NCBI GenBank assembly: GCA_038087875.1
Contig: CM075995.1
Coordinates: forward strand, 2,544,001 to 2,608,000
Direction of reading: 5' to 3'
DNA from: Malacoraja senta
Lineage: Eukaryota
Length of the DNA stretch: 64,000 nt
Notes under the pieces: model-generated
What the model saw: only the letters and a program-made list of their open reading frames with translations
The model's database searches: none
Told to the model about the DNA's origin: nothing
Shown: in pieces, positions 17,687-50,100 of the stretch
Layout of the letters: each line of letters begins with the position of its first letter
Numbering within the stretch: the stretch's first letter is position 1
Made by a program: the position numbers and the translations under genes

Positions 17687-18082
17687 GTGTTGTTGAATAC
17701 GAGGCTTTCAGAGTTAAATACATTGGCACGGTTTTAGGGGAGGCACGGAGGCGCAGTGGTAGAGTTGCTGCCTTACAGCGCCAGAGATGCAGTCGATCCT
17801 GACTACGGGTGCTGTCTGTGTGGAGTTTGTAAGTTCACGATGTGGCCACGTGGGTTTCCTCCCATGTTCCAAAAACATGCAGGTTTGAAGGTTAATTGGC
17901 CTCTGTAAATTGTCCCTTGTCTGTCGGATGATCATTGGTCAGCGTGGACTCGGTGGGTCAAAGTGCCTGTTTCTTCACTGTATCTTGAAAATAAACTAAA
18001 CCATTGTTTTAAAACCCAAATCACATCATAAACAAAACAGGCACAAAATGCTGGAGTAACTCAGTGAGAGCCCCTGACTGTC

Positions 18083-18116
18083 GGTCTGAAGAAGGGTCTC
18101 GACCCGAAACGTCACC
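18083..18116 (+). ncRNA. Minimal type I hammerhead ribozyme motif (PLE-borne), core intact
   Basis: ggt-CTGAAGA-a-gggt-ctcg-accc-GAAAC-GTC-acc; stem I GGU/ACC, stem II GGGU/ACCC, palindromic ACGU in place of stem III. Confidence 0.8.
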
Positions 18117-20225
18117 CATTCCTTCTCTCTAGAGTTGCTGCCTGTCCCGCTGAGTTACTCCAGCATTTCGTGTCTATTTTTGGTGTAAACCAACATACGC
18201 AGTTCTTTCCTACAAATAAACAAAACGGCCTCTGGCAGTATGGCTCTAGCTAATTCCAATCATGGGGTCTAGTTTTTTCAAAGTTTTATCCCTCTTTCTT
18301 ATTACTGATCATTATATCACGGTAATCAGTAACCTGCCACATTTCATTCTGGGAAACCCTTCTTCCTTCGGAAGAGAAAGTGATTTGAAAATGGGGTATC
18401 TGGTCGCCAGTCGTCAGGAGACAGAAATGTGGAAGAGAACAGTTTTAGAGCCTTGATCATCGTTACTTTGTTGCATATCTTTCATTTATTTGTTCTATAT
18501 CTCTCTATATCATCGTCGATATCTCGCGTTTCCCTTTCCCCTAACTCCCCCATGTTTCCACTAGTGGGAGAGTCTGAGACGTTCTTTTAGGAAGGAGATG
18601 AGGAATTTCTTTAGTCAGAGGGTGGTGAATCTGTGGAATTCTTTGCCACAAAAGACTGTGGAGGCCAAGTCAATGAATATTTTTTAAGGCAGAGATGGAT
18701 AGATTCTTGATTAGTACGGATGTCAGGGGTTATGGGGAGAAGGCAGGAGAATGGAGGGAGGGAGAGAATAGATCGGCCATGATTGAATGGCGGACTAGAT
18801 TTGATGGGCCGAATGGCATAATTCTGCTCCTATCACTTATGACTTTATGACTCTCAGTCTGAAGAAGGGTCTCGACCCAAACGTCACCTATTCCTTTTCT
18901 CCAAAGATGCTGCCTAGCCCGCTGAGTTATTCCAGCTTTTTGTGTGCATCTTTGATTTAAACCAGCACCTGCAGTTCCTTCCCACACAGTTTTGGAGGAA
19001 TGCTGCGATCTGAAAGTTGGAGGACTGGGGGAAATTTCAAAGACAGGTGGAGCCAACCCTGTGGGTGGCTGTAAATGTGAGAATGTGAATTTTAATTCAC
19101 ACCAAAGGCAAAATATTGTTATTCTATTGTTGTTTAATTATGTGCATAAAATTGCATTTATCTCACAATTAATTTCTTTCATCTTTGACGAATGTGATTT
19201 TTTTAATTGTTTTGACATTCAAAACATTTTTTTAATGAATAGTTTGACCTTGTGTAAGACTTCTCGAATTTAGTACTCTATTTAACATCTGAGCATCAGC
19301 TTTAAGTTTTACTCTTAACAAAGATAAATCTCAATTTCTCCATCTCCACCACATCTACTCCTAAGATAAAGATTTCCATTCTCGGACATTCTCGCTGGAG
19401 TTTAGAAGGTTGAGGGGGGACCTCATTGAAACTTACAGAATAATGAAAGGCATTAGATAGAGTGGATGTGGAAAGGATGTTTCCACTGGTGGGAGAGGTC
19501 ATAGCCTCAGAATTAAAGGGCGCTCTTTTAGAAAGGAGGTGAGGAGGAACTTCTTAAGTCAGAGGGTAGTTAATCTGTGGAACTCATCGCCACAGAGGGT
19601 TGTGGAGGCCAAGTCAGTGGATATTTTTCAGGCAGAGCGAGACAAATTCTTGATTAGAACGGGTGTCAAGGGTTATGGAGAGAAGGCAGGAAAATTGGAT
19701 TAGGAGGCAGAGATCGGCCTGGTGAATGGTGGAGTAGACTCGATGGGCCGAATGGCCTAATTCTACTCTTATAACTTGTGAACGTGTCATCCAAGATGTC
19801 TTTGTTTAGTAAACATGGTTTCCCCATCTGCTGTGAGGGGGAAATGGGGAATGGGGTTAGGGGGGGAAATGATAGATCAGCCATGATTGAATGGTGAAGT
19901 AGACTTGATGGGCCGAATGGCCTAATTCTGCTTCTATCACTTATGAACTGTGGGAGATAGATCCCCCACCCACATTTCCTCTGTTTCTCGAGTTCTGCTC
20001 TCAATCCCCCCTATGTGGATGGAACAAAGATAGGGTTCCCCTGGATAGACACAAAATGCTGGAGTAACTCAGCAGGTTAGGCAGCATCTCTGGAGAGAAG
20101 TAATGGGTGACCTTTCAGGTCGAGACTCTTCTTCAGACTGTGAGTCACGAGAGAGGGAGACTAAAAATATGGACGGGTAAGGTGTGAAAATAACAGACCA
20201 AAGCAGGCAAATCTAAGGAAATGTA

Positions 20226-20405
20226 TGTAGACAAAAATGCTGGAGAAACTCAGCGGGTGAGGCAGCATCTCTGGAGAGAAGGAATAGGTGACGTTTCCTT
20301 TGTCACCTATTCCTTCGCTCCATAGATGCTGCCTCACCCGCTGAGTTTCTCAAGCATTTTTGTCTACCTTCGATTTTTCCAGCATCTGCAGTTCTTTCTT
20401 AAACA
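20226..20405. mobile_element. Foldback non-autonomous PLE derivative
   Basis: About 66-bp inverted arms (20227-20292 and 20302-20367); 12-bp TSD taaggaaatgta at 20214-20225 and 20406-20417. Confidence 0.85.
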
Positions 20406-20422
20406 TAAGGAAATGTAGGGTA

Positions 20423-20674
20423 GTTGTGGACTTGGACCCCAAGATACCACTGTATATTGTATATTTCCCCCTTACATTTGACCACCCAAAGTGCAACACC
20501 TCATTCTAGCTTGATCTGTCATAAACTCCATCCGCCATTTCTCTGCCTATTTCTGCTGCTGATATATATCCCGCTGTGTACTTTGACAGCCTTCCTCACA
20601 GTCTGTGACCCCAGCAATCTTGGTGTCATCTTCTCAACCTTACGAACTAACCTTTCTACATTTATGTCCAAGTC

Positions 20675-20715
<41 letters not shown>

Positions 20716-21890
20716 AAGATATATATCTCAGCACAGATCCCTGCAGTACTCTTCTGGTCATGGACATCTAGGTTTCTACCATAACCTTTTATCAGTAACC
20801 CAGTTCTGAATGCATATGACCAAATCCCAGTTAATCCCGCGTACCTTAATCTTCAAGGTCAGCCTACCATGGGGGACTTTATCAAATGCCTTAAGGGCCT
20901 GTCCCGCTTGCCGATTTTTTTCGGCGACTGCCGGCGTCATCGACTGACGTATCAGGGTCGGCGAAAGATTTTGAACATTTCAAAATCCAGCGGCGACAAA
21001 AAAAACGTTGCGACACTTGAGGAAACACTGCGCGTCAATACGTCATCACACCGCGTCACGCCGCATCTTTTTCAGTGACCTGATACGTCAGTCAATGACG
21101 CTGGAACTTCACCCATGACTAAAGCACACACAAAGATCTTTGTCATGGCTCCCGTAATCCTCTCTCTTGCCTCTCTCAATAATCTGGGCTAAATCCCATC
21201 AGGTTCTGGGGATTTATCCACCTGAATGCTCTTCAAGGGTCGCAACACCACCCCCTTGAGATCTCCTTTTCCTGCCCAACCTCTCCCTGTAGCTGAGGCC
21301 CACAAATCCTGGCAACATCTTCTTATATCTTCGCTGCACTCTTGCTAGCTTAACAACATCCTTCCTAAAACTGAACACTGAACACAATACTAATAATGCA
21401 GCCTCACCAATGTCTTGTACAACTGAAACATAACATCCCAATGTCTATACTCAATATCCTGACTGATGTAGGCCAATATACCAAAAGCCTGCTTGATCAC
21501 CCTTTCTACCTGTGATGCCGCTTTCAATGAACTATGTAAATGCACTCTTGGATTCCTCTACTCTACTCTCCAGAGCCCTACCATTCACTGTGTAGGTCCT
21601 TCACTGATTTGGCTTATCTGCATTAAACTCCATTAACCCTTCCTCAGCCCACTTGGCCAAATGATCAATATCATGCTGTAATCTTTGATAACCATCTTGA
21701 TTATCTACAATACCACCATTTTAGCGTCAGGTGCAAACTTACTAATCATGTCTTCCGCATTCTCATCTATGTCATTGGCATAAACCATAAACGACAGTGG
21801 GCTCAGCACCGATCTCTGAGGCACACCACTCGTTATAGGCTTCCAGTCCGAAAAATAACCTTCCACTATTACGCTTTGCTTCCTTCCTCT
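20423..21890 (-). mobile_element. Older, rearranged CR1 fragments with an embedded (TA)n microsatellite (20677-20712)
   Basis: YINDLD and RVQRRYKKMLPGFVGLSYRERLGR remnants on the minus strand. Confidence 0.75.
20894..21103. mobile_element. Truncated PIF/Harbinger MITE
   Basis: tta|agggcctgtcccgctt TIR like 30576; internal inverted repeat (gcgtcatcgactgacgtatcagg / cctgatacgtcagtcaatgacgc); second TIR missing. Confidence 0.7.
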
Positions 21891-26972: not shown

Positions 26973-27766
26973 TTGTTGCCATCATTTCCAGGTTCATGAT
27001 TAGACATGTTTACACAATTTAAGAAGACTTGAAAAACTGGGACTTTTGGCTATAAATTTGATGAATATTAAATCCTTTAGAAATGTGTAAAAGTAGGCCA
27101 GCAAAAGAAAAATCAAGGAAATTCATAAAGTGGTGGAACAAACAAGCAAAAAGATGGCGCAAATGAGAAATGACAGCTCTATAGGGAAAGAACAAAGGAC
27201 ACAAAATACTGGAATTACTCAGGGGGTCAGGCAACATCTCTGGATAAAAGGAATAGTTCACGTTTCAGGTCGAAACCCTTCTTCGAAACATCACCTATTC
27301 CTTTTCTCCAGAGATGTTGCCTGACCCGCTGAGTTATTCCAGAATTTTTGTGTCTATCTCCGATGTTAACCAGCATCTGCAGTTCCTTCCGGCACTTACA
27401 AGGAAGTGCTGGAGTAAGTCAGAGGGTCAGGCAGCATCACTGGAGAACATGGAAAGGTGGCATTTTGGGTCGGGAGCCTTCTTCGGACTCAAGATTAGCC
27501 AGGAACACAGTCACATACTTGATCTCCTGGGACAGGAGATGATTTTCAAGGTAAATCACTGCAAGGAACTGGATGGGTCTTGTAGACTAAGATCAGTGCA
27601 AGCTTTTCTGAGTTTTGGTTTGTTTGTCCTGGTGTCTTGGGCAGGTTAAGACATCTGCCCATGGGAGTGAACATGGGTCTTCACTAGTGCTAGAAAACCA
27701 GTCTTCAAATGTGGATGCCAAATCTGACTCGGTATCAGTTTTCAATGCACCTCAAGAAGACGGTAC

Positions 27767-28318: not shown

Positions 28319-29749
28319 CACTCTCGGGTTTGAACTCGCAGCAGTCGGGTCAGATTCTAACTTTGTTTCCCAGCAGCCCACTAAGTCTGGGTACATCTGT
28401 GTTGAATGTGTAAGAAAGAACTGCAGATGCTGGTTTAAATCGAAGGTAGACACAAAATGCTGGAGTAACTCAGCGGGTGAAGCAGCATCTCTGGAGAGAA
28501 GGAAAGGGCGACGTTTCGGGTCGAGACCCTGCATTTTGTGTCTACATCTGTGTTGAGCTACGATTCATGCAATCCTCACGATTCCTCAGAACTCCTCACA
28601 TTTCCCAGTTCTTAAGCCTGGAAGTCTGCCTTCTGAGTCCAGGCCAGGTTCAATTGCGGGAAGTACAAACGGTCCCGGTGAAACCGATGGAAAGAAAGAA
28701 GCAGCTGCCAGCAAAACACTGAGTAGATGTTTCATTTAATTCAGCCAGTTTAAATATATATTAACACACTTGCATTGAACCGCAGAAACAAGGAACTGCA
28801 GATGCTGGTTTACCAAAAAAGGTACAAAGTGCTGGAGTAACTTTAGTGAACCTGGGACGATGAAGAGATGAGTACTTTGTGTACATATGTCGGCGCCTTA
28901 GTGGCGACTCTTTTGTGTACTTTGTACGCAAAAACAAAGTATTTCACTGTAGCTGGGTACTGGTGTCAATAAAGTATCATCATCATCATCACCAACTCAA
29001 CGGGTTAGGCAGCATCCCAGGAGAACATGGGTAGGTGATGTTTTGGGTATTCAGTCTGAAGAAGAGTCCTGATCCAAAACGTCACTCATCCATGTTCTCC
29101 AGGGATGCTGCCTGACCCGCTGAGTTACTCCAGCACTTTGTGTTGTATTTAACTGCTCCTGAATGCCTGTTAACTAACATGTTGACGATTATTCATTTAA
29201 GGAGTCTAATTTTTTTTAAATTATTGCTTTTATTTTCTAATGCTTCCTAAATAGTTTCTGGAGAGACCCACAAGCATTCCATTTAAATGTTAATGACAAT
29301 TTAAAAACTATTAAAGTCATGAAATGAAATGTAATCAAAACATTATAAATAAACATTTACTTTAGACTTTAGGGATACAGTGCGGAAAAGGACCCTTAGG
29401 CCTACCGAGTCCGCGCCGACCAATGATCACCCCGTACACTAGCGCTATCCTGCACACTACGGACAATTTAGTTTTTACCAAAGCCAAGTGACCCATAAAC
29501 CTGCACGTCTTTGAAGTGTGGGAGGAAACTAGAGCACGTCTTTGGAGTGTGGGAGGAAACCCACGCAGTCACAGGGAGAACGTGCAAACTCCGTACAGAC
29601 AGCACCTGTAGTCAGGATCGAACCCGGGTCTCATGCGCTGTAAGGCAGCAACACTACCACTGCGCCAATGTGTCGCCATGCAGTTGGAGGGATTTTTTTT
29701 GGCTGGGAGAATAGTGACTGTGTTAATTAAATGGTGTGAGACTGTGTCG

Positions 29750-31081: not shown

Positions 31082-33176
31082 TAAGCCACTTTGCCTCCCA
31101 TATTTAATGAAAGGAAATCTCCACACTTCCAGTTTTGAATGTCTGACAAATAATGAGATAGTAGAGGAGTCAAGAGATGTATAGGTATGATAGACCCTGG
31201 TGTAATTAGCAATGTAAGTAAGAAATGATTACTTTTGTTTGAAAACACTAGAGTGAGAGAAATCAAATACAATAGGGCGTAGCTTTAAGGTCAAATGCTA
31301 GAGGCCATATTATAAAGGTGAGAGGGGCAAAGCTTAAAGGAAATGTGCATGTCAAGTCTTTTACACGGAGGGTAGTGAGTGATTGGAACACGCTACCAGG
31401 GGTGGTGGTTGAAGCAGATACGTTAATGGCATTTAAAAGACTATTAGATAGGCAGGGAATGGAGGGATCTGGGTTATGAACGGGTAGATAGGTGATGGTC
31501 TTGGCACCATGTTTGCACAGACAATGTGGGTCAAAGGGCCTGTTCTCATCGAAGATAGACACACAGTGCAGCGGGAAAGGCAGCATAGAAGGAATGGGTG
31601 ACATTTCGGGTTGAGACCCTTCTTCAGACTTATTTCAGCTCCGGGCCTATTCCTCATTTTAGTTTAGAATATTATCACGTGTACCGAGGTACAGTGAAAT
31701 GCTTTTATTGCGTGCTAACCAGTCAGCAGAAAGACAATACATGATCACAATCGATCCATTCACAGTGTACAGATACATAGAAACATAGAAAATAGGTGCA
31801 GCACCGCCTTTCAATATGATCATGGTTGATCATACAAAATCAGTAGTCCGTTCCTGCTTTCTCCTCATATCCCTTGATTCCATTAGCCCTAAGAGCTATA
31901 TCTAACTCTCTCTTGAATACATCCAGTGAAAGAAATGGCCTCCACTGCCCTCTGTGGCAGAGAATTCCACAGATTCACAACTCTCTGGGTGAAAAAGTTT
32001 TTCCTCTTCTCAGTCCTAAATGGCTTACCCCTTATTCTTAAACTGTGACCCCTGGTTCTGGACTCCCCCAACATCGGAAACAGTTTTTCCTGCATCTAGC
32101 CTGTCCAATCCCTTAAGAATTGTATATGTTCCTATAAGATCCCCTCTCATCCTTCTAAATTCCAGTGAATATAAGCCCAGTCAATAAGGGAATAACATTT
32201 AGAGCAAGGTTAAGGCAGCAGACCCGATCAAGGATAGCCCGAGGGTCACCAAAGAGGTAGATAGTCTCTTATGCTGTACTGTTCTATTTAAAACGTCTAC
32301 AGAGCACCCAATGACTGAATGTTACCTCCTTCTCAGCCAAGTCACTTAGAGCACACCTCCTTGTTATTAATATCATGTTATTAATATTGTATAATATCCC
32401 AGTCCATCATCAGCTCTGACCTCCCTTCCATCGAGGGGATCTATCGCAGGCGCTGCCTCAAAAAGGCTGCCAGCATCAAGGACCCACACCATCCTGGCCA
32501 CACACTCATCTCCCCGCTACCTTCAGGTAGAAGGTACTGGAGCCCAAAATCTGCAACATCCAGGTTCAGAAACAGCTTCTTCCGCACAGCGATCAGACTA
32601 TTAAACACAACTTCAAACAAACTATGAACTATAACAGCCTATTGCACTTTATCTGTGTATATATATTCTATGGTATATGGTCACACTGATCTGATCTGTA
32701 TTTATGCCTACAATATTCTGTTGTGCTGAAGCAAAGCAAGAATTTCATTGTCCTATCTGGGACACATGACAATAAACTCTCTTGACTTGACTTCTCTTTG
32801 TGGAACCTTTTCACTTAAGTTAGTTACCTTGTTTCCTGCATAAGTGTCTGCATTTTAAGAAAAATGAAGAAAGCATTTACTTATTGCATAAACAAGCCAT
32901 CTGATCTAACCTGTTGATTCTGGAGCTAATCCTGCACATGACCAGTTTATTCAATTAATAAGGGCTTAATTATTTACAAGTGATGGATTTAGTGGCTGAA
33001 CTGAATTTAGTATACACTGTCCCTCATGATGAATCTGTTTCTAATATATATTGTTTCGCATTGGATTCTGCAAACAGTGCATGGATTTAGCAAAGGTAGT
33101 TTGCCAACCTGTGATCAGCACTGCATTATATCCATTCACTATGTCTCTCACTACATGTGAAAATTCCACTGTAATT

Positions 33177-35553: not shown

Positions 35554-38500
35554 GGTAACAATCTCGGGATTACTGCCTGTGCCACGCGACAGTGAGAGTA
35601 GGAATGGAGCGAGGTGGAGGATAAATGCGTGGCTGAAGGACTGGTGCAGAAGGCAGGGATTCAAATTTCTGGATCATTGGGACCTCTTTTGTGGAAGGTT
35701 CGACCTGTACAAAAAGGATGGGTTGCACTTGAACCTGAGGGGGACCGATATCCTGGCGGGGAGATCTGCAAAGGCTACTGGGGAGACTTTAAACAAGAAT
35801 GGTTGGGGGGAGGGACTCAAATAGAGAATGCTATTAGACAGTGTGTGAGGCAGGAGGCAGAGAAGGAAAGCACTCAGACCCAACATGTAGGGGGGGGAGA
35901 AGAAAACAATAATAAACAGAGAATAAGAGGTGGTGGGGTTCTTAAATGGGTGAGCAGAGAAACAGAGGGGTGTAAAATGCGGGCGGAAGCAATAGGTAGC
36001 AAGGTGAAAAGTAAAAGTGGCAGGCAGACAAATCCAGGGCAAAAATCAAAAAGGGCCACTTTTCAACATAATTGTATAAGGGGTAAGAGCGTTGTAAAAA
36101 CAAGCCTGAAAGCATTGTGTCTCAATGCAAGGAGCATTCGTAATAAGGTGGATGAGTTGAACGTGCAGATAGCAATTAATGATTATGATATAGTTGGGAT
36201 CACGGAGACATGGCTCCAGGGTGACCAAGGCTGGGAGCTGAACATCCAGGGATATTCAATATTCAGGAGGGATAGAGAGAAAGGAAAAGGAGGTGGGGTA
36301 GCGTTGCTGGTTAGAGAGGAGATTAACGCAGTGGAAAGGAAGGACATTAGCTTGGAGGATGTGGAATCGGTATGGGTAGAGCTGCGAAACACTAAGGGGC
36401 AGAAAACGCTCGTGGGTGTTGTGTACAGGCCACCTAGCAGTAGTAGTGAAGTTGGGATTGGCATCAAACAGGAAATTAGAAATGCGTGCAACAAAGGCAA
36501 AACAGTTATAATGGGTGACTTCAATCTACATATAGATTGGGGGAATCAAATTGGCAGGGGTGCTGAGGAAGAGGATTTCTTGGAATGTATGCGGGATAGT
36601 TATCTAAACCAACATGTAGAGGAACCAACGAGAGAGCAGGCTATTCTAGACTGGGTATTGAGTAATGAGGAAGGGTTAGTTAGCAGTCTTGTTGTGCGTG
36701 CCCCCTTGGGCAAGAGTGACCATAATATGGTTGAGTTCTTCATTAGGATGGAGAGTGACATTGTTAATTCAGAAACAACGGTTGTGAACTTAAAGAAAGG
36801 TAACTTTGAGGGTATGAGATGTGAATTGGCCAAGATTGACTGGCAATTAGTTCTAAAAGGGTTGACGGTGGATATGCAATGGAAGGCATTTAAAGACTGC
36901 ATGGATGAACTACAAAAATTGTTCATCCCAGTTTGGCAAAAGAATAAATCAGGGAAGGTAGTGCATCCGTGGATAACAAGGGAAATCAGGGATAGTATCA
37001 AAGCAAAAGATGATGCGTACAAATTAGCCAGAAAAAGCAGCATACCGGAGGACTGGGAGAAATTCAGAGACCAGCAGAGGAGGACAAAGGGCTTAATTAG
37101 GAAAGGGAAAATAGATTATGAAAGGAAACTGGCAGGGAACATAAAAACTGATGGCAAACGTTTTTATAGATATGTGAAGAGAAAGAGATTAGTTAAAACA
37201 AATGTAGGTCCCTTGCAGTCAGAAACAGGTGAATTGATCATGGGGAACAAGGTTATGGCGGACCAATTGAATAACTACTTTGGTTCCGTCTTCACTAAGG
37301 AAGACATAAATAATCTGCCGGAAATAGCAGGGGGCCGCGGGTCAAAGGAGATGGAGGAACTGAGTGAAATCCAGGTTAGTCGGGAAGTGGTGTTGGGTAA
37401 ATTGAATGGATTAAAGGCCGATAAATCACCAGGGCCAGATAGGCTGCATCCCAGAGTATTGAAGGAAGTAGCTCCAGAAATAGTGGATGCATTAGTGATA
37501 ATTTTTCAAAACTCTTTAGATTCTGGAGTAGTTCCTGAGGATTGGAGAGTAGCAAACGTAACCCCACTTTTTAAGAAGGGAGGGAGAGAGAAAACGTGGA
37601 ATTACAGACCAGTTAGTCTAACATCGGTAGTGGGGAAACTGCTAGAGTCAGTTATTAAAGATGGGATAGCAGCACATTTGGAAAGTGGTGAAATCATTGG
37701 ACAAAGTCAGCATGGATTTACGAAAGGTAAATCGTGTCTGACGAATCTTATAGAATTTTTCGAGGATGTAACTAGTCGAGTGGATAGGGGAGAACCAGTG
37801 GATGTGTTGTATCTGGACTTTCAGAAGGCTTTCGACAAGGTACCACATAAGAGATTAGGATACAAACTTAAATCACACGGTATTGGGGGTTCAGTATTGA
37901 TGTGGATAGAGAACTGGCTGGCAAACAGGAAGCAAAGAGTAGGAGTAAACGGGTCATTTTCACAATGGCAGGCAGTGACTAGTGGGGTACCGCAAGGCTC
38001 AGTGCTGGGACCCCAGCTATTTACAATTTATATTAATGACCTGGATGAGGGAATTGAAAGCAACATCTCCAAGTTTGCGGATGACACTAAGCTGGGGGGC
38101 AGTGTTAGCTGTGAGGATGATGCTAGGAGACTGCAAGGTGACTTGGATAGGCTGGGTGAGTGGGCAAATGTTTGGCAGATGCAGTATAATGTGGATAAAT
38201 GTGAGGTTATCCACTTTGGTGGCAAAAACGGGAAGGCGGACTATTATCTAAATGGTGGCCGATTAGGAAATGGGGAGATGCAGCGAGACCTGGGTGTCAT
38301 GGTACACCCGTCATTGAAAGTAGGCATGCAGGTGCAGCAGGCAGTGAAGAAAGCGAATGGTATGTTGGCTTTCATAACAAGAGGATTTGAGTATAGGAGC
38401 AGGGAGGTTCTCCTGCAGTTGTACAGGGTCTTGGTGAGACCACACCTGGAGTATTGCGTACAGTTTTGGTCTCCAAATCTGAGGAAGGATATTATAGCCA

Positions 38501-39009
38501 TAGAGGGAGTGCAGAGAAGGTTCACCAGACTGATTCCTGGGATGTCAGGACTTTCATATGAAGAAAGACTGGATAGACTTGGCTTATACTCGCTAGAATT
38601 TAGGAGATTGAGAGGGGATCTTATAGAAACGTACAAAATTCTTATGGGGTTGGACAGGCTAGATGCAGGAAGATTGTTCCCGATGTTGGGGAAGTCCAGG
38701 ACAAGGGGTCACAGCTTAAGGATAAGGGGGAAATCCTTTAAGACCGAGATGAGAAAAAACTTTTTCACACAGAGAGTGGTGAATCTCTGGGACTCTCTGC
38801 CACAGAGGGTAGTTGAGGCCAGTTCATTGGCTATATTTAAGAGGGAGTTAGATGTGGCCCTTGTGGCTAAGAGGATCAGGGGGTATGGAGAGAAGGCTGG
38901 TACGGGATACTGAGTTGGATGATCAGCCATGATCATATTGAATGGCGGTGCAGGCTCGAAGGGCCGAATGGCCTACTCCTGCACCTATTTTCTATGTATC
39001 TATGTATCT
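35554..39009 (+). mobile_element. 5'-truncated young CR1 LINE: end of ORF1 (SGNH esterase), complete ORF2 and 3' UTR
   Basis: ORF1 remnant ISGLLPV...WCRRQGFKFLDHW...DGLHLN; 3' UTR ending in (TATCTATG)n. Confidence 0.96.
35614..38913 (+). CDS. CR1 ORF2, endonuclease-reverse transcriptase, uninterrupted (true start probably downstream of 35614)
   Basis: 1099-codon ORF. EN motifs LNARSI, GITETWL, GDFN, SDH. RT motifs QHGF, YLDFQKAFDKV, GVPQGSVLGP, FADD. Confidence 0.95.
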   Translation: MEDKCVAEGLVQKAGIQISGSLGPLLWKVRPVQKGWVALEPEGDRYPGGEICKGYWGDFKQEWLGGGTQIENAIRQCVRQEAEKESTQTQHVGGGEENNNKQRIRGGGVLKWVSRETEGCKMRAEAIGSKVKSKSGRQTNPGQKSKRATFQHNCIRGKSVVKTSLKALCLNARSIRNKVDELNVQIAINDYDIVGITETWLQGDQGWELNIQGYSIFRRDREKGKGGGVALLVREEINAVERKDISLEDVESVWVELRNTKGQKTLVGVVYRPPSSSSEVGIGIKQEIRNACNKGKTVIMGDFNLHIDWGNQIGRGAEEEDFLECMRDSYLNQHVEEPTREQAILDWVLSNEEGLVSSLVVRAPLGKSDHNMVEFFIRMESDIVNSETTVVNLKKGNFEGMRCELAKIDWQLVLKGLTVDMQWKAFKDCMDELQKLFIPVWQKNKSGKVVHPWITREIRDSIKAKDDAYKLARKSSIPEDWEKFRDQQRRTKGLIRKGKIDYERKLAGNIKTDGKRFYRYVKRKRLVKTNVGPLQSETGELIMGNKVMADQLNNYFGSVFTKEDINNLPEIAGGRGSKEMEELSEIQVSREVVLGKLNGLKADKSPGPDRLHPRVLKEVAPEIVDALVIIFQNSLDSGVVPEDWRVANVTPLFKKGGREKTWNYRPVSLTSVVGKLLESVIKDGIAAHLESGEIIGQSQHGFTKGKSCLTNLIEFFEDVTSRVDRGEPVDVLYLDFQKAFDKVPHKRLGYKLKSHGIGGSVLMWIENWLANRKQRVGVNGSFSQWQAVTSGVPQGSVLGPQLFTIYINDLDEGIESNISKFADDTKLGGSVSCEDDARRLQGDLDRLGEWANVWQMQYNVDKCEVIHFGGKNGKADYYLNGGRLGNGEMQRDLGVMVHPSLKVGMQVQQAVKKANGMLAFITRGFEYRSREVLLQLYRVLVRPHLEYCVQFWSPNLRKDIIAIEGVQRRFTRLIPGMSGLSYEERLDRLGLYSLEFRRLRGDLIETYKILMGLDRLDAGRLFPMLGKSRTRGHSLRIRGKSFKTEMRKNFFTQRVVNLWDSLPQRVVEASSLAIFKRELDVALVAKRIRGYGEKAGTGY

Positions 39010-39044
39010 AATCCCTTAAGAATCTTATATATTTCTATCAGATC

Positions 39045-39244
39045 NNNNNNNNNNNNNNNNNNNNNNNNNNNNNNNNNNNNNNNNNNNNNNNNNNNNNNNN
39101 NNNNNNNNNNNNNNNNNNNNNNNNNNNNNNNNNNNNNNNNNNNNNNNNNNNNNNNNNNNNNNNNNNNNNNNNNNNNNNNNNNNNNNNNNNNNNNNNNNNN
39201 NNNNNNNNNNNNNNNNNNNNNNNNNNNNNNNNNNNNNNNNNNNN
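39045..39244. other. Assembly gap (200 N)
   Basis: Run of exactly 200 n; a round number, so the true size is probably unknown. Confidence 0.99.
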
Positions 39245-41154
39245 CCAGAGGAGGTTTACAAGAATGTTTCCAGGAATGAGTGGGTTGACATATGATGAGC
39301 GTTTGACAGCACTGGGCCTCCACTCGCTGAAGTTTAGAAGGTTGAGGGGGGGCCTCATTGAAACGTACAGAATAATAGAAGGCATAGATAGAGCAGATGT
39401 GGAGAGGATGTTTCCACTGGTGGGAGAGTCTAGGACTAGAAGTCATAGCCCCAGAATTAATGGGCGCTGTTTTAAAAAGGGGGAACTTCTTTAGTCAGAG
39501 GGTAGTTGATCTGTGGAATTCTTTGCCACAGAGGGCTGTGGAGGCAAAGTCAGTGGATATTTTTAAGGCAGAGATAGACAGATTCTTGATTAGATAGTGT
39601 GTCACGGGTTATGGGGAGAAGGCAGGAAAATGGGATGAGGAGGCTGAGATCAGCCATGATTGAATGGCAGAGTGGACACGGTGGGCCGAATGGCCTAATT
39701 CTACTACAACTTGTAAACTTGTGAAATTGCTGTAGTAACTCAGCGGGACAGGCAGCATCTCCGGATAGTACAAGTAGGCGACTTTTTGGGTCGAAACCCT
39801 TCTTCTCCAATGTGTCTATGCATGGTCGTCAGGAGGAAAACATGATATTATAATGACGTCCCTCTCACCTGCTCTGTAAAACCGAGCCCAGTTTCATAGC
39901 TGTTGCTAAATAAAACCAAGAGAAATGGGATCTTGGCAAGCTGTAGACCTTGAAAACAGTGTTGCAGCGTCATGCCTGTTCTCCACAATGAGTCACCCGG
40001 ATGTCTCCCTCACCTGCCCTGACACACGAAGCCCAGTTTTACTGGTTGTTGCAAAATAGACCCAAGAGAACTGGCAAGGAGACAATTTCTATAGCTCTAA
40101 CAGTGTTACTTCCAGCACAGTGCCTGCTCTGCCACCTCTGCATGCACAAGAGTACCAAGTTTGTCCACAGGAATATGAAAGCTGCACTTATTTGCCTTGC
40201 AAGAGGTAGTTCCAATGCTCAAAACAGGCCTGAATTCCAGAATGTACATTTGTTGACCATTCTTCAGCAAAGAGTGAACAAATGATCAGCAAGAGGACAC
40301 AAAGTGCTAGAGTAACTCAGCGGGTCGGGCAGCATCTCTGGTGAACTTGGATAGGTAACGCTTCGGGTTGAGAGCCTTCTTCATGAGAACGTTGGAGGGT
40401 GAGTTTGGAGCCGATTAAAGTGGCCCAAAGTGCTAGACTGAAGAAGAGCCTCGACCTGAAACATCACCTAGCCATTTTCTCCAGAGCCTCTCCCTGACCT
40501 GCTGAGGCACTTTGTGTCTAGTTGTGCATCAACCAGCACCTACAGTTCTTTGTTTCTGTACGTTCTGCAAGCATTAGCATAACAAATTGGGTGGCAAAAC
40601 CTTCCCGTGTTGTCAGCTTAGCGTTAACAATTAAAATCTGTATTTAAAGAATGCAAATTCATCAGTGTGAGGCCAGAGCTAGAAGCCATGGCTGGTGTTA
40701 ATATTTTCAGTCTGCTAATGGTCTGAATGCTGCAGCCAAGCCATTAAGTGGCGCAGTTAAACACATTTGGCCATGAACCAACTCACACAAACTGAGATGT
40801 GAACAAAGTCCTGATGATAAAGAATAAGCAACAGTGGTAAGTGAACACAATTCTCTTGTGCAACCTGTCTCAAGCCTTTTTTCTAAGTCAAACACAATTT
40901 GTTTTTCTCCTTAGGAACAATATTAGAACTGTTGCGTATGTAGAAAAACAGATTCAACGATTTAAGTCCAACAACTCCAAACCAGCTAATGCAAAAACAA
41001 TCCTTGACAACTATAGTAGCTTGACACAATGATTATCAATAGACATTTAATATTTCTACTGCTATAAATCACAGTATTTTGTACAAATCATCAATCCAAG
41101 CTATCAGATGAGCAAAGAACGCCACAGTGGCGCAGCGGTAGTGTTGCAGCCTTA

Positions 41155-41919: not shown

Positions 41920-44244
41920 TTACAGCACCAGAGACCCGGGTTCGATGCCGACTATGGGTGATGTCTGTATGGAGTTTGTATGTTCTCCCTGTGACTGCGT
42001 GTTTTTTCTCCAGGTGCTTTGGTTCACACCCACATTCCCAAGACGTGCAGATTTGTAGGTTAATTCACTTCTGTAAATTGTCCCTAGCGTGTAGGATACA
42101 ACAAGTATATGGGTCGGCACGGACCCGTTGGGCCGAAGGGCCTGTTTTCACAGCCTATCTCTAAACTAAACTAATTTATTCAGGTAACAAAAATGGTTCC
42201 TGATTTAATCTACAATTTCAAACCTAAGGGACCTTTCCAATGTTGCTCTAATTACCTTCTGTGTCTCTAAACTAAGAAGGATGACAATAATCTGATTCCT
42301 TGGTCCCTTTAGGTTTAGGTTTATTGTTGTCAAGTGTACCGAGATACAGAGAAAGCTTTGTATTGCATGCTATTATATCATTTCAGATTTACCATATATA
42401 AATACAAACAAGTCCAACTCAAGTACAATACATAAGCCAAAGGGGAAGATACAGAGTGCAGCATAATAATTCTCAGCATTGTATCAGTTTAGTTTAGTTT
42501 AGAGATACAGCGTGGAAACAGGCCCTTCGGCCCACCAAGTCCGTGCCGACCGGCGATCCCCATACATTAACACTATCCCACGCACTCTGGGGACAATTTA
42601 CACGTACACGAAGCCAATTAACCTACATACCCGTACATCTTTGGAATATGGGAGCAAACCGAAGAGAAACCCCACGGTCACGAGGAGAACGTACAAACTC
42701 CGTACAGACAGCACCTGTAGTCGGAATCGAACCCAGTTCTCCGGCACTGCAAGCTCTGTAAGGCAGCAACTCTCACGCTGTGCCACCGGGCTGCACTGTT
42801 CCTTGGATAAGTTCCTTATCCGTTCCTAGATCAGTTCCTTAGACAAGTCCAATGCCTCAAAGGAGCAGAGGTGAATCATATTAGGTGACTCACGCTGGCT
42901 GAATTAACCTGACTTCATTTAGGATCATTCAGAAGATTGATAACAATGAGGAAGAAGTTGTTCCTGAGTCTGGTGGTGCACACTTTTAAGCTTCTGTACC
43001 CACTGCCCAACAGGAGCAGGGAGTAGGAAGAAATGACCGAGATGGGACAAGTCTTTGATCTTGTTAAAAATAGACACAAAGTGCTGGAGTAACTCAATGG
43101 GTGTGACAATGTCTTTGGAGAATATGGATAGATGACGTTTTGGGTCGGGATTCTTGTTAATGTTGGCTACCTTTCCAAGGCAGCATGAAGTGTAGATGGA
43201 GTCAATGGTGGGAAGTCTGGTCTGTTCTGACTTTGCATTAAACACCATTAACTATTCCTCAGCCCACTTGCCCAGCTGATTAACACTGGGCTGCAATATT
43301 TAATAACACTTTTATAAGATCAGCACTCAGCCTCCTCCCCCTCCAAGAAACAGAGTCCGAGCCTGCCAAACCTCTCCTTACAGCTCAGGCCCTCAAGTCC
43401 TGGCAACATCCTCGTAAAACTTCTCTGTACTCTTTCCAGCTTAATGGCATCTTTCCTATAGCAGGGTTTTAGCAATATGTGTGAATGCAGGCCAGATTGC
43501 TTCAATTAAAATTTCTACATAAAATAAGTCTCTGTGCAAACACAAACAGCTAATTTGGCAGGGCACCTGAGGATAATGGGCATTATTGGAAGCTTGCCTT
43601 AGTTATCAATCTGGGAGGGGAAAAGTCTCGGAAAATAATGAATGAGACCAGGCTGTCTCATTGATTGAATCAATAACTCTGCTTCCCAATTCTACACTTG
43701 GCTTTTTCATTTGTATCTATTATACTGGATTTGTTTGCAGTCACTGAACTTTCCATGTTCATTACATTGGGACAAATGTATTTATCTGTAAATTTTCATG
43801 TCATTATATTGTGGTGCATTTTGCTTCAATTATTCCCCATTGAATTCCCATGTGGAGACAAGATATCATGGTGTAATTATTACAAATAATTTGATAATTC
43901 CAGAAAATGAACTGTGAATGGAAGAGAAATATAAGGCTATGTATTAAAAAAAGTGCATTTATCTTTTACCGAAGCAAAACCAAAAGGCTTGGAACTCATA
44001 GAAGGCACGGCAGCATTTCCAATAACTGCAAAGGAGTTGGTGTTTCAAGCATGGTTTCAACCTCTTCAATGCATCACTTCTGAGTTGCTCTTTCCTTCCA
44101 TATCTTCAGCATTGCAATATTCTGCCATCTCTTTGTTCTTACACTTTTGGCCGCTTGTGTATCCCAATTATCATCATTGCACTGTTCGCAATGTCTTGAG
44201 CCCAAGCTCTGGGCTTTTCTCCCCAACATCTCCCTGTTTCAATT

Positions 44245-44276
<32 letters not shown>

Positions 44277-45226
44277 CCCTTTAAGCAACACCATAAATAT
44301 CTCTTTATTTCCAAGATGTCACACTGTTAAGAAATAAAAACAGAATTCACGAGTTCTGTTATTAAACGCTTCGGTTATGTTTACAGCCAGCACCCGTAGT
44401 CAGGATCAAATCCGAGTCTCTGGCGCTGTGAGGCAGCAACTCTACCGTGTCACCCACTAAATTAAGTAAAAGAATTAATAAAGAAAATACAGCGCTAAAC
44501 AATTTCTTTTTCACACATTATACGAAGCCTAGGGAGTACTAAGAGTAGTCCAAGTAGTTACAGTCTAAGATAAGTAGAGGGTGGCACCACATAGGCAGTA
44601 GAAGCTTGAAGGAATAACTGGTCTTTATTTGTGAAAAACACAAAGTGCTGGAGGAATTCAGTGAGTCAGGCAACACCTGTGCAGGAAATGGACAGATGAT
44701 GTTTCGGATTGGGATCCTTCTTCTCCTTCCTGTCCCATTTTTAACTTTGTAGTTGCGAAGGAAGGAATTTAAATGGCCCAATTTATTCATCATCTCCTTC
44801 TGTCAGCCACCTCCGATCATGTCTGCAGCGTGCAACCTCCGACTGACACACCAAGTCATAAAGCAGGAAAAGGCAACCGAAGCCATCTGTTTGCATGCAC
44901 AAGGTCTGGAGTCCAAGCAGAAGGTCCAGATGGCTGGGCTTAAGTTAGTTCACATTTTGAGCAAAAGATTAATCTTATGGTAAAGTGATCCAAAATGCCA
45001 TGTTAAATTGAACAGATTGCAGTATCTGAACTGAAATCGATGTTCTCTGCTGCTGACAGTTGAAAGGTGGGTGAAGCACATCTACCCCCCATTTACCAGG
45101 CTTAGAGGCGAACCTAAGACTTAAATATACGGTAAATATTAGTCAAGAGTCAAGTGTGTTGAATGTCATATGTGAAATGAAATTCTTACTTGCAGCATTA
45201 TAACAGGCCTGTAAACACATTACACA

Positions 45227-46510
45227 TCTATATAACTAAAAGTCTCATCTTGACAACTTCCTGTCTGCGCTATATATTGATCTTAGAAAAAATGCTGCCC
45301 TATATCGCTATGATTTTTGGCCATCTTATTCAGAGTCCTCCTCCGCTGAGGCAGCCCCGAGGATTTTTCCGATCGATGAAAAATCAAAAAGTTATGAATG
45401 TTTCAAAAATCTTGAGATTAGCTGATTGGTCCTCTTGCCTGTCAATCACCACGATGACGGTAACGCCCCCTCCGGTGGGGGGCAGGACTATAAAACCCCA
45501 GATGCCTGGACGTGAGACAGTCACTCTGGAAGATCGCGAGGGAGAGTCCACAATGCAATGAAATTGAATATGGAGGCCTGCACTATGCTTGAAATAGAAA
45601 CATAGAAACTAGGTGCAGGAGGAGGCCATTCGGCCCTTCGAGTCAGCACCGCCATTCATTGTGATCATGGCTGATCGTCCCCAATCAATAACCCGTGCCT
45701 GCCTTCTCGCCATATCCCTTGATTCCACTGGCCCCTAGAGCTCTATCTAACTCTCTCTTAAATCCATCCAGTGATTTGGCCTCCACTGCCCTCTGTGACA
45801 GGGAATTCCACAAATTCACAACTCTCTGGGTGAAAAAGTTTTTTCTCACCTCAGTCTTAAATGGCCTCCCCTTTATTCTAAGACTGTGGCCCCTGGTTCT
45901 GGACTCGCCCAAATGCTATGAAATTGAATGTGGTGGCCTGCACTCTGCTTGAAATGCTATGAAATTGAATGTGGTGGCCTGCACTCTGCTTGAAATGCTA
46001 TGAAATTGAATGTGGTGGCCTGCACTCTGCTTGAAATGCTATGAAATTGAATGTGGTGGCCTGCACTCTGCTTGAAATGCTATGAAATTGAATGTGGTGG
46101 CCTGCACTCTGCTTGAAATGCTATGAAATTGAATGTGGTGGCCTGCACTCTGCTTGAAATGCTATGAAATTGAATGTGGTGGCCTGCACTCTGCTTGAAA
46201 TGCTATGAAATTGAATGTGGTGGCACTGCACTCTGCTTGAAATGGAATTTCAAGGAATAACCGTGAGTGAACAGCCAGCCCACCAGGCCTGAGTGACTGA
46301 GCTGCCAGCCCAAGAATCAATTTGGCCCACAATGTCCATACTAGCCCACTGGAAACCAGTCCCTTCGGCCCACGCCCATACTATCCCTCCAGAAAGCCCC
46401 CCCCCGCCCACTGGCCACCAATATTGGAATTGGTGGAGAGTTGGAATATTGCGTTGGGGGACCAGCCCTCCCGTGTGAACATGGGACCCAACGGGTCCCA
46501 CTTAGTCTAG
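45227..46510 (+). mobile_element. Non-autonomous Helitron, unit 1 (contains a minisatellite and a CR1 insertion)
   Basis: a|TCTATATAACTAAAA start; hairpin tgggaccc-aac-gggtccca (46482-46500) then CTAG|t; no TSD. Confidence 0.85.
45911..46240 (+). repeat. 41-bp minisatellite, 8 near-perfect copies, plus a degenerate copy at about 45552-45594
   Basis: Unit aaatgctatgaaattgaatgtggtggcctgcactctgcttg. Confidence 0.97.
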
Positions 46511-47192
46511 TATATTACTAAAACTCTAATCTTGTTCGTTAGCATGTCCTTGAGTCTGTCTGAAGTCTGATCCAGAAACTACGCCAAATGGTACACGATA
46601 CCGCTACAATTTTTGGACCACCTTACTCACCATTGTCCTGTGGTGTGGTGTATCGTTTTGTTCAGATTGATGGTATATTTTATGTTATTCACATTTTAAA
46701 CTTTACAAAATCCAGTTTGAGAAAAATCACTGGAACTTGCACTGACAGTTAGCAGCTATGACGTCACAATGGGATCTCATTTACATAAACTGCCCGTCAA
46801 TAGTGTTCCACACCACAATGGGATCTCATACACATGAAAAAAACAGCAGCTTCCTCAACTCCCTTGCCCTGCCACTGCCCGTTACAATGTTACAAATGAC
46901 TGGACACTGAGTCCTGTCATTTCTAACATTGTAACGGGCAGGGGCAGGGCAAGGGAATTGGATTTTTTTAAGTGAAAAGTTAGTGAATTTTTTAAAGTTT
47001 AAAAAGAGGGAGGGTGAAGAGGAGGGGGAGGGAGTGCTTGGGATGAGGGGAAATGAGCTGCGTCTGCGCAGTTGGGAGCTATGGGTGAGTGGTGGAATAT
47101 TGCGTTGGTGGAACGTGTTGCTTTGGGGGAACGGATGAGTGGTGGAATATTGCGTTGGGGGAACGGGACCCAATGGGTTCCACTTGTTCTAG
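46511..47192 (+). mobile_element. Non-autonomous Helitron, unit 2, head-to-tail with unit 1
   Basis: tatattactaaaactctaatcttg 5' end homologous to unit 1; hairpin gggaccc-aat-gggttcc then CTAG|t. Confidence 0.82.
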
Positions 47193-50100
47193 TATCATAT
47201 ATAATAAACAGAAGCAAATTCTAGGCGGCAAGGTGGCGTAGCGGTAGAACTACTGTCTTACTGCGCCAGAGATCTGGGTTCGATCCTGACTATGGGTGCT
47301 TGTCTGTACGGAGTTTGTTCGTTCTCCCCGTGACATGCATAGGTTTCTCCGAGATCTTCTGTTTCCCCCCACTCTCCAAAGACGTACAGGTTTGTAGGTT
47401 CATTGGCTTGGTATAAATGTAAAACAGTCTCTAGTGCCTGTAGGGTAGTGTTAATGTGCAGGGAACGCTGGTTAGCGCGGACTCGGTGGGCCGTGGGGCT
47501 TGTTTCCGCGTTGTTTCTCTAAAACTAAATGCAAACTTAAAGAATTTTTTTTTTTATTAGACGCCGTGTACAAAAGTATAAACCGCGGCATATGACATAA
47601 TACATTTATTGTATAGCTTCAATTTTTAATTTTAGCTAAAGATGAGAAAGAAGAAGAGAGAAAAAGCAAGAGAGAGAGAAAGTGATGGTGCAAGAATGTG
47701 TGGAGTAACTTAATGGGTAAGGCAACTTTATAGAACATGGAGAGGTGATGTTTCGGGTCGGGTCCCTTCCTCAAACAAACGTCACTTATCCACGTTCTCC
47801 AGAGATGCTACCTGACCTACCAAGTTACTCCAGCAATTTGTGTCCTTTTTTTTGTGAACCAGCATCTGCAGTTCCTTGTTTCTACAAAGACAGACAACTG
47901 AAGTTTACAGTTGAGTTAGTGTTGTGCAGTGTTCAATGGCCTGACGCTTGATGAAAATAAACTATTCTAGAAACCCGGTAGTCACTGTTTTCAAACTCCT
48001 ATACCCTGTACCTGATGGTACGAGTGAAATGAGAGCGTGGCTGGGGTGATGTGAGTTTATGACGATATTGGCTGCCTTTTTGAGGTGGAGCCTCCTTTTG
48101 ATCCCTTCAATGGTGGGGAGGTCAATACCTGAGATGGACCAGACAGTGTCTACCCCTCTCTGTAATCTCCTTCATTCCTGCGAGCTTGAGCTGCTGTACC
48201 CAGACCAGGAGACTATCAGTCAGTATGCTCTCTACCGTGCCACTGCACAAGTTCAAGAGAATATTCGCCGATATACCAAATCTCAATTTTCTAAGGAAGT
48301 AGAGACATTGAAGGCTTTTCGTTGTGACTGCATGGTCCAGGGCACATATTTAGAGACATCCACACCTAGGACCTCTCTCTACCACCGACCTGTTGGTGAA
48401 GACAGGTTCATGCATCCTTAGCTTTCCTGTTCTAAAGTCAATAATCAGTTCCTTGGTCTTACTGATGTTGAGCGCAAGATTATAGTTCTGACACATTCAA
48501 TCAGACAAGCAATCTCCCTCCTACACGCTGACTAATTATTACCCGCTGTTCATCCAACAATTTACATGGGAATAGAGTCGAGCAGGGGGTTGAGCACGCA
48601 GCCTTGAGGTGCTCCTGTGCTGATGGTTATCGAGGAGGAAGTGTTGTCGCCGATTCCTACTGCTTGTGGTCTGCTGATGAGGAAGTCGAGGAACAAGTTG
48701 CATAGGAATGAGCAGAGACCCAGTTCCCTGAGTTTGACAACAAGTTTGAAGGGGGTGACAGTGTTGAATTCCGAGCTGTAGCCGCTTAACAACTGCGTGT
48801 ACATGTGTATTCATGTGTGTATATATTTATATAATGGTATATGGACACACTGATCTGTTCTGTATTCATGCCTACTATGTTCTGGTGTGCTGAAGCAAAG
48901 CTAGGACATCATTGTTCTATCAGGGACACATGACAATAAACTCTCTTGATCTTGAACATGTTCTTATTGTCCAGGTGGTCCACAGCTGAGTGGAGAGCCA
49001 GCGAGGTTGTATCCCCCTTTTTGTATCGTCGTTTCCCTTATCCCTAACCAGTCTGAAGAAGGGTCTCGACCCAAAACGTCACCCATTCCTTCTCTCCAGA
49101 GATGCTGCCTGTTACTCCAGCTTTTTGTGTCTATCCCCCTTTTTTCTATTGTGGCGTTAGGCAAAGTGTTCTGGGTCCAGATCCTTGCTATGGTTGGAGT
49201 TAATATACGTCATGACCAAACTTTCAAAGCACTTCATAATTCATTGATTATAAATAATTTATCCTGTTACAGTTACCGTACTCCCCAACTAAATGCAGGT
49301 TTTAGAGGCTTTTAGATAGGCACATGGAAGTGCGGGGAATACAGAGAAATGGATCATGTACAGGCAGATGAGATCAGTTTAACTTGGCATCATGTTCTAC
49401 ATTGTGGGCTGAAGGGCCTGTTACTGTGCTGTACTGTTTAATGTGCTATGTTGTCAGATGGGGCATCTTGGACAAGTTGGGCCAAAGGTCTAGTTTCCAT
49501 GCTGTATGTCTCTAACTTCGATTCTATTGAAAACTAAATAAAATAGACATGAGCTCGTTCCATACAAGACTTCTCGGAATTCATTGCCACAGACGGCCGT
49601 GGAAGCCAAGTCAATGGATATTTTTAAGGCGGAGATTGACAGATTCTTGATTAGTACGGGTGTCAAGGGTTATGGGGAGGAGGCAGGAGAATAGGTTTGA
49701 GAGTGAAAGATAGATCAGCCACGATTGAATGGCAGACTTGATGGGCCGGATGGCCTAATTCTGCTCCTGGAATTTATGAACTTAATCTCACTCCTGAAAG
49801 GAGTTAATTATATGACTGACATTGAATATACCACAAAAAAAAAAACATGGTCCCAGCATAAGAAGCCAGCTCTAATACTGGTCTGAACGACATAAATACA
49901 AGATTTGGAAATCAATAGGGTGAAGTCATTACCCATCCTCGTCGGATGACAGCTACATTTCATCAGCACTAAAAATTGCACATGTATAGCATCTTTTATT
50001 CGGAAGAAGTCCCAAGTCACCGAGATTTACTATCCCAATGTTTAAGAAACAGTTAGACAGGTACATGGATAGACAATAGACAATAGGTGCAGGAGTAGGC

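Follow-up and report, generated by a model that had tools for sequence, protein, structure and literature searches.

Insertions of endonuclease-bearing (EN+) Penelope-like elements (PLEs) of the Neptune clade are described as heavily 5'-truncated, with an inverted 5'-truncated copy and a tail of 30-40 bp that often stands at one end only (PMC8557442). The same paper calls the origin of the inverted pseudo-long terminal repeats (pLTRs) and tails of PLEs undefined. In Penelope of Adineta vaga, pLTRs occur inverted or solo and hold an initiator-like motif, an optional 31-bp tail lies on just one inverted pLTR, as it also can in the Neptune clade, and target-site duplications (TSDs) measure 8-10 bp (PMC3846280, PMC8557442). 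For Poseidon of Anolis carolinensis (PAc), two internal start sites of the reverse transcriptase (RT) were found to bound the tail; each strand of the target is cut and then extended, and hammerhead cleavage is not needed, uncleaved RNA being used (PMC11167929). Here we consider 64,000 nt of Malacoraja senta DNA (GCA_038087875.1, contig CM075995.1, positions 2,544,001 to 2,608,000, forward strand; hereafter the window), in which the end of a PLE recurs as short single arms and as head-to-head foldbacks. The short foldbacks are clipped ends of an ordinary PLE and not an element family of their own, because their junctions are unique and their arms polyphyletic. We think it likely that they arose by twin initiation of cDNA synthesis from both nicked strands of the target.

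The parent element resembles Neptune-clade EN+ PLEs in its single open reading frame (ORF) ending in a Cys-rich linker and GIY-YIG, and in the minimal hammerhead within the pLTR. The short units differ from those PLEs in consisting of the pLTR pair alone (110-190 bp). As in PAc, two start sites appear to bracket the tail, and we propose that here too both strands are extended on uncleaved RNA. The sites lie roughly 80 and 120 nt 3' of stem II, compared with 111-118 nt for the main PAc site; PAc also belongs to another clade, and the units here have no ATG at stem II of the hammerhead, which reads CUGAAGA (PMC11167929). In A. vaga, the inverted pLTRs flank ORFs or captured DNA and junction palindromes measure 18-38 bp, whereas the palindromes here reach at most 6 nt (PMC3846280). 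Dispersed minimal hammerheads of metazoans are likewise found as thousands of single motifs and as opposite-strand pairs 100-700 bp apart, interpreted as truncated PLEs (PMC4209133); the pairs here are closer together, and that paper does not mention cartilaginous fish (0 matches for 'shark'). Metazoan non-LTR retrozymes share the type I hammerhead, TSDs of more than 4 bp and a probable derivation from pLTRs, but are arranged as direct tandem repeats (150-450 bp) and yield discrete RNAs, both linear and circular, whereas the units here are single or head-to-head (PMC7229834; bioRxiv 10.64898/2026.07.22.740005). Among titles and the starts of abstracts, our searches returned nothing that joins Penelope, skate or shark and the hammerhead ribozyme, and nothing on the subject for Penelope twin priming or for skate and Neptune. 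In L1 twin priming, a second nick primes a second cDNA, which leaves an inverted 5' part inside the TSD, with microhomology. Two inversions in the window (9125-9413 and 58535-58625) are of this kind. In the short foldbacks, by contrast, the second cDNA would begin at a constant position, 35-40 nt inward of the first, which makes the arms overlap widely as an inverted duplication. The family may already be annotated in Repbase or Dfam, and supplements to the literature may list chondrichthyan units.

The terminal unit is the 3' pLTR of an ORF-bearing, endonuclease-bearing PLE. This follows from the broken ORF end, with its Cys-rich linker and GIY-YIG motif, that adjoins the units, and from the RT and GIY-YIG domains of relatives. 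Upstream of the units at 59259, 15832 and 4399 lies a 3' untranslated region (UTR; ~190 nt or shorter) and then the ORF end, so that GIY-YIG and terminal unit are contiguous in three copies. The largest of these, at 58535..59388 (+), comprises an inverted ORF piece (~58535-58605), a broken Cys-linker and GIY-YIG end (58629-59065), a ~190-nt 3' UTR and a hammerhead unit with tail; its inversion junction lies inside the ORF, with an overlap of ~20 nt near 58609. The 5'-truncated copy at 15423..15930 (+) has an endonuclease C-terminus, 3' UTR, hammerhead unit and tail-less end, and is 82% identical to the 59259 copy across the 425 nt upstream of the unit. That at 4308..4594 (-), with ORF C-terminus, UTR and hammerhead unit, belongs to a different subfamily. 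Searches with tblastn and the proteins of relatives matched 58629-59063, 15423-15640, 4594-4490 and 9384-9316. With a 72-aa piece from the window, one protein search retrieved 17 of 20 candidates, which share 58-82% identity with it, and a second retrieved 1,851 proteins; the piece itself had no Pfam match. All five full-length relatives scanned (816-924 aa) carry a C-terminal GIY-YIG and four carry RVT_1, several of these matches scoring below the Pfam cut-off. The PLE origin that the preliminary description had assumed without a test is thus demonstrated by ORF continuity and by these relatives. Within the window, no RT region is contiguous with a terminal unit and no full-length element is present; isolated fragments of a PLE RT region lie at 52587-52712 (-) and 19329-19397 (+), away from any hammerhead unit. 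A Cys motif of the CxxxxCxxC type precedes GIY-YIG at 58670-58700, and a Zn-finger-like Cys motif between RT and EN defines Neptune (PMC8557442); this linker motif, the one feature behind the assignment, suggests a Neptune-like parent element. The copies look like old, decaying insertions. Their identity to the window majority is 67-95% (median 86%, 33 scored), and change is higher at CpG (50/223) than at other sites (344/2,716), as expected.

Unit positions are counted from the A in the AG that precedes the hammerhead core; the unit is ~95 or 131 nt long. Positions 2-34 match a minimal type I hammerhead, with the core boxes, a single additional base following A9, a stem II of 4 bp and, where stem III would be, a self-complementary C-G, and cleavage is predicted after position 31. 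In the copy at 18084..18116 (+), CUGANGA occupies 18086-18092 and is followed by the extra base, the 4-bp stem II, GAAA and C-G, with the GUC at 18111-18113 and predicted cleavage after 18113. An alignment of 23 copies, which omits 55605 and the matches that lack the hammerhead region, also displays the predicted G10.1-C11.1 and palindromic 15.2/16.2, features taken from the list in PMC4209133. In this alignment, 86% of cells are paired, compared with 9-44% when the pairing is slid; covariation is weak, 28 of 500 shuffles scoring equally high. An Rfam scan gave no hammerhead family match and returned sub-threshold microRNA (miRNA) and NRON matches alone, the ten miRNA-precursor matches falling on two hairpins. 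Folding of five units yielded no stability above expectation (z -0.4 to -1.1), so we make no structural claim on the start sites.

A profile built from six copies gave 36 matches in the window. On visual inspection these amount to 27 insertions, of which 8 are short foldbacks, 2 have an inverted ORF or UTR piece and 17 are single arms. It had been proposed in the preliminary description that most units are a terminus plus an inverted partial copy. This is so for three of the four TSD-flanked units described there, the fourth (49023-49131) being a single arm, and does not carry over to the window, where 19 other insertions are set against the 8 foldbacks. The five additional inverted pairs it had named are all present, two of them larger than was thought (28782-29143 and about 55034-55710), with one arm of each split by a later insertion.

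The foldback at 18028..18226 (+; TSD 18028-18038 / 18216-18226) joins an inverted tail-less arm (18039-18069; ~64-92) to a tail-bearing arm (18071-18215; -12 to 131). In the youngest, at 20214..20417 (+; 12-bp TSD), whose arms are alike at 63/66 positions, the tail-less arm (20226-20297, -; 24-95) is followed by 4 untemplated nt and the tail arm (20302-20405, +; 29-131). At 27199..27396 (+), the tail-less arm (27199-27284, -; 6-92) overlaps the tail arm (27284-27396, +; 23-131) by 1 nt, and a separate single arm follows at 27404-27489 (-). The foldback at 28392..28556 (-; 14-bp TSD) has a tail arm at 28406-28530 (-; 12-131) and an inverted, tail-less arm of merely 12 nt (28531-28542, +; ~78-90). 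At 28782..29143 (-), a later insertion of ~150 bp splits the tail arm (28782-28843 and 28993-29048, -; inner end 20), and the tail-less arm occupies 29051-29143 (+; -2 to 92). The remaining foldbacks are old. At 40297..40559 (+), the arms (tail-less 40297-40384, -; tail 40435-40559, +) are 76% alike and separated by ~50 nt, possibly decayed UTR. At 47700..47883 (+), a tail-less arm with an eroded outer end (47701-47776, -; 2-80) meets a tail arm (47777-47883, +; 25-131). At 55025..55735 (+), later repeat insertions split the tail-less arm (55034-55075 and 55551-55603, -), the partner arm has a partial tail (55607-55710, +), and a 12-bp exact direct repeat (55025-55036 / 55724-55735) sits 14 nt from the arm end. 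The foldbacks at 20214 and 27199 directly abut other PLE copies (20039-20213 (-) and 27404-27489 (-)), and the endonuclease may favour its own AT-rich ends.

Every foldback is head-to-head, and its outer ends fall at the two recurrent end sites of the unit, near 92-95 (pLTR end) and near 131 (tail end); the 35-40 nt between them are the PLE tail. A tail is present on one arm in all eight foldbacks (partial at 55607-55710) and on both arms in none, and the tail-less partner terminates at 87-95 in all but one of them, where erosion has taken it back to 80. By comparison, of the other insertions that could be scored (39724, whose 3' end is interrupted, and the decayed 16817 being left out), 3 of 17 have a tail (Fisher p 1.5e-4). 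The p value is 0.007 under stricter scoring, in which the partial case is counted against and a doubtful single for. The one-sided tail with inversion is the published signature of inverted pLTR plus tail in miniature.

The duplications that the preliminary description had noted are exact, at 11, 12, 14 and 13 bp around inserts of 177, 180, 137 and 109 bp, and lie beyond chance. We compared the longest exact repeat abutting both unit ends in 18 real units and 2,983 random pseudo-units: repeats of at least 11 bp flank 4 of 18 and 8 of 2,983, respectively. Seven of the 18 units have a TSD of 7-14 bp, against 53 of 2,983 random units with at least 7 bp. Single arms add TSDs of 10 bp (17590/17679), 9 bp (43059/43152) and 7 bp (53944/54048). 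A 6-bp repeat at 54232/54334 is weak, since 155 of 2,983 random units reach 6 bp; a TSD guessed at 31569 was not confirmed, and by this test no significant TSD flanks the foldbacks at 27199, 28782, 40297 and 47700. At tail-less ends, target bases match the template over 3 nt (28543), 4 nt (49132) and 1 nt (18039), which fits annealing of a nicked primer.

The junctions differ in all eight foldbacks. In the order given above, the inner ends of tail-less and tail arms are 64/-12, 24/29, 6/23, 78/12, -2/20, about -50/1, 2/25 and -4/6, and the arms are joined through 0-1 nt of overlap or 1-4 filler bases. The suggestion that inversion points cluster near the hammerhead holds in that 12 of 16 inner ends lie at -4 to +29; none lies at the cleavage site itself (31/32). 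Termination of cDNA at a cleaved hammerhead was considered and rejected, as no inner end of the 16 and no end among the other arms falls at 31-33, and we take the template to have been uncut there. Single arms end in the same zone as the foldback inner ends, and 10 of 35 arms start at -4 to +2; the clustering is therefore a property of cDNA truncation and not of inversion. In five of the eight foldbacks (20226, 27199, 28782, 47700, 55034), the tail-less arm extends further 5' than the tail arm; 40297 is uncertain. Such non-nested arms disfavour simple self-copying of a cDNA, unless the tip was later deleted lopsidedly.

We consider it probable that the units are dead, heavily 5'-truncated insertions from several subfamilies of an endonuclease-bearing PLE, with the foldbacks formed by twin initiation. 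In this scenario, the simplest that accounts for all these observations, the RT-endonuclease would nick both strands 7-14 nt apart, and a separate cDNA would be primed from each nick, the tail start site serving for one and the pLTR-end start site for the other. The two would proceed toward the 5' side of the RNA and usually halt before ~100 nt had been copied, either inside the uncleaved hammerhead or just 5' of it, with a mode at +1/+2; the two cDNA ends would then be joined with 0-4 nt of microhomology or filler. A lone cDNA would leave a single arm, and second priming further upstream could have produced the inversions within the ORF at 9125-9413 and 58535. This proposed sequence of events, from nicking to joining, is modelled on the anatomy of the units and on PMC11167929. 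Candidate causes of the +1/+2 stop are a splice acceptor and RT stalling on the ribozyme, and a pyrimidine tract, CTRAC and YAG lie before the hammerhead. The mode may also reflect cDNAs that ran off the 5' end of a transcript which begins at TCAGTCT, a motif that we take to be initiator-like. Splicing to a fixed PLE exon was rejected as its cause, because the loose contig ends there are heterogeneous. Host exons may still use the putative splice acceptor, and in D. virilis Penelope an intron ends at the equivalent place before the hammerhead (PMC4209133).

Whether the foldbacks form a family can be judged from a tree and from public sequence data. In a tree of 29 arms (7 of the 36 matches, 9376, 16817, 18033, 28788, 31542, 55028 and 55551, being left out), foldback arms are interspersed with single-arm and ORF-bearing copies that represent at least three subfamilies. 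The foldback label changes 11 times along the tree, compared with 9.9 times when labels are shuffled, and grouping of all foldback arms in one clade is rejected (p-AU 2.9e-6); the sequences are short, and 2 of 26 branches are strongly supported. The two arms of any one foldback belong to the same subfamily. Comparison of 17985-18560 at 85% with public runs from three organisms (A, B and E) gave 169,013, 170,653 and 152,838 contig records. Sequence next to their loose ends is heterogeneous (agreement 0.33-0.39). Among the 15 best-supported joints, 11 return within the unit, 8 of them running from the tail-less end to the start, with intervening letters that are not known, 3 connect UTR to unit, and 1 changes strand; no high-copy inverted junction is among them. 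Short direct repeats of the hammerhead (33-42 nt) also occur, with joints from 18116, 18120 and 18125 to 18084 in 2-14 contigs per run. Some have 1-4 letters between and none joins exactly at the cleavage site; they are possibly template jumps after run-off, or natural hammerhead dimers. In one poly(A) RNA run of organism E, a relative (6% read, 14,223 reads placed), both strands are alike and 97% of reads continue into other sequence: the terminal unit travels inside host transcripts. Read starts and ends do not pile up in this run, whose library loses short and circular RNA.

Of the alternatives raised in the preliminary description, abortive PLE insertion by second-strand priming is supported, and simple fold-back priming, with five of eight foldbacks non-nested, is disfavoured. 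In the latter, a cDNA or antisense RNA would fold back and copy itself, the endonuclease would resolve the intermediate at the pLTR end to leave a one-sided tail, and the hairpin tip would later erode. Self-priming with endonuclease resolution is the explanation offered in PMC3846280 and PMC8557442, two foldbacks (18039, 28406) are nested as it predicts, and the junction at 27199 is a 6-nt palindrome. The arms of one foldback also share minority variants (5 in 20226, 2 in 27199, 5 in 28782), although these are also expected from one master element. Even the youngest foldback is non-nested, however. Two of its three arm differences match alleles of a copy from another subfamily, at 4301; these two are carried by the tail arm, which groups with 4301 at 96/85, and are absent from the partner arm. 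This single case hints at two templates. On balance, we regard self-priming as an unlikely origin of the inverted arms.

The solo unit of ~95 or 131 nt might instead be a non-autonomous template resembling a short interspersed element (SINE), transcribed from its own start or within host RNAs and mobilised in trans by a PLE, with foldbacks as by-products; this could coexist with twin initiation. The unit covers a region equivalent to the minimal PAc template (PMC11167929), pLTRs are enough for trans-mobilisation (PMC3846280) and non-autonomous PLEs exist (PMC8557442). About 150,000-170,000 contigs per run match the stretch, RNA depth falls about tenfold 5' of +1, and 10 of 35 arms begin at -4 to +2. 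Against this, every subfamily of the tree holds short units intermixed with UTR-bearing and ORF-bearing copies. The contigs differ in what lies 5' of the unit (agreement 0.33), the loose ends listed share no recurrent transduced flank, and the poly(A) run has no discrete transcript start. We regard such a template as unlikely, although some solo units may have been mobilised in trans. Far less probable is a retrozyme-like family with its own master copies, spreading via self-cleaved circular RNA, the other possibility that had been entertained. A minimal hammerhead is present, its short 33-42-nt repeats occur, and head-to-tail joints (tail-less end to +2) are the commonest of those listed (113, 87 and 115 contigs, 8 rows). 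A preprint reports pLTR-derived tandem retrozymes, one chondrichthyan included (10.64898/2026.07.22.740005). Yet none of the 36 matches in the window forms a direct tandem, all eight junctions are unique, the arms are polyphyletic and none ends at the cleavage site. The letters between long head-to-tail joints are not known, so that each contig may hold two separate copies, and each such joint has 0-4 RNA reads. An inverted partner would probably base-pair with the strand that holds the ribozyme and would not close a circle.

Several points weigh against twin initiation and the denial of family status. The start sites of PAc have no strand difference, so that they alone fail to predict the pairing of tail and tail-less ends, and the main text of PMC11167929 does not discuss inverted insertions or TSDs. 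Our base-by-base reading is limited to the eight foldbacks, whose non-nested arms could reflect later lopsided deletion at a hairpin tip. The clustering of inner ends at -4 to +29 has a nominal p of 0.003, for an interval chosen after the data were seen. Loose ends peak at 18084 (1,825, 2,626 and 2,501 in organisms A, B and E) and at 18177 (650, 788 and 866), but these peaks are made sharper by mismatches of the reference at 18080, 18083 and 18178, the first two of which inflate the peak at 18084. The one strand-changing joint (18085/18126) recurs in all three organisms, in 4, 3 and 3 contigs at about single-copy depth, so recurrence of breakpoints, absent from the window, is not absent altogether; microhomology was rejected as its basis, a hexamer lying 5 nt away with no letters shared at the joint. 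The joint counts are incomplete, 511 further joints standing behind the best 15, and identical junctions collapse in contigs. In all three organisms, A, B and E, the 18028 insertion is bordered on the right by one and the same flank (in B and E the tail stands next to it, and 18227 is A, which would make the TSD 12 bp there); no single record spans the whole unit, and no empty site for this insertion was found among the contigs of the three organisms.

The element family is ordinary: these are truncated PLE ends with the known inverted-repeat-plus-tail anatomy, at its smallest size. Given that the origin of this anatomy is called undefined, the short foldbacks are a useful test set, with arms, junction and TSD all contained in 200 bp and some 30 copies in each 64 kb. 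At such density, one skate- or ray-like assembly would allow thousands of events to be scored for arm nesting, tail pairing and template identity. Tentatively, we suggest that the PLE protein acts as a coupled dimer, its two RT sites committed to different start sites (the tail end for one nicked strand, the pLTR end for its opposite) and at times working on two RNAs, with most cDNAs being 'strong-stop'-like products that run off at a transcript start before the hammerhead, and with some solo units propagating in trans. If so, these very abundant miniature foldbacks would preserve a fossil record from which to tell whether self-priming, endonuclease resolution or twin initiation gave rise to the inverted repeats and tails of PLEs, and a share of solo units may be the smallest PLE-dependent elements. 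Repeat-finders, microRNA scans and retrozyme pipelines may misfile such units.

Other copies in the window vary in anatomy. The single arm at 49010..49144 (+; 13-bp TSD) has 27 nt of 3' UTR, the hammerhead, a 10-nt deletion and a tail-less end. In that at 17590..17688 (-), the 10-bp TSD overlaps the first bases of the unit (5' microhomology). Further single arms lie at 43059..43160 (-; positions 12-95, 9-bp TSD) and 53944..54054 (+; starting at +1, 7-bp TSD). At 9125..9413 (+), the inversion junction lies in the ORF: ORF end and UTR run on the minus strand to 9383, and an overlap of 8 nt (9376-9383, 7/8 matching the unit) links them to plus-strand unit positions 50-89. A copy with UTR and tail at 18451..18988 (+) is split by a ~300-bp 3' fragment resembling a long interspersed element (LINE). 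Fourteen nt before it, 17 nt (18421-18437) resemble an inverted tail-less end, possibly a ninth, very short inverted arm. The region 16817-16934, excluded from counts of end types, is decayed and combines pieces of the unit with the end of a SINE. Pattern scans for further copies gave 0 matches in metagenome contigs, prokaryote genomes and viral contigs.

The window is otherwise repeat-rich animal DNA, with 42-47% GC in most bins, an assembly gap within 39000-39494 and 200 N in all; its SINEs and LINEs resemble those of skates or rays. An unrelated hairpin at 46856-46960, present once, has 50-nt arms that are 92% complementary around a 5-nt loop and gives sub-threshold miRNA matches; it is probably a remnant resembling a miniature inverted-repeat transposable element. 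A Tc1-type transposase fragment of 224 aa lies at 57176-57850 (-). An uninterrupted frame of 1,103 aa at 35602-38913 (+), with endonuclease and RT domains (Pfam), is a young or intact LINE ORF2, presumably CR1-like.

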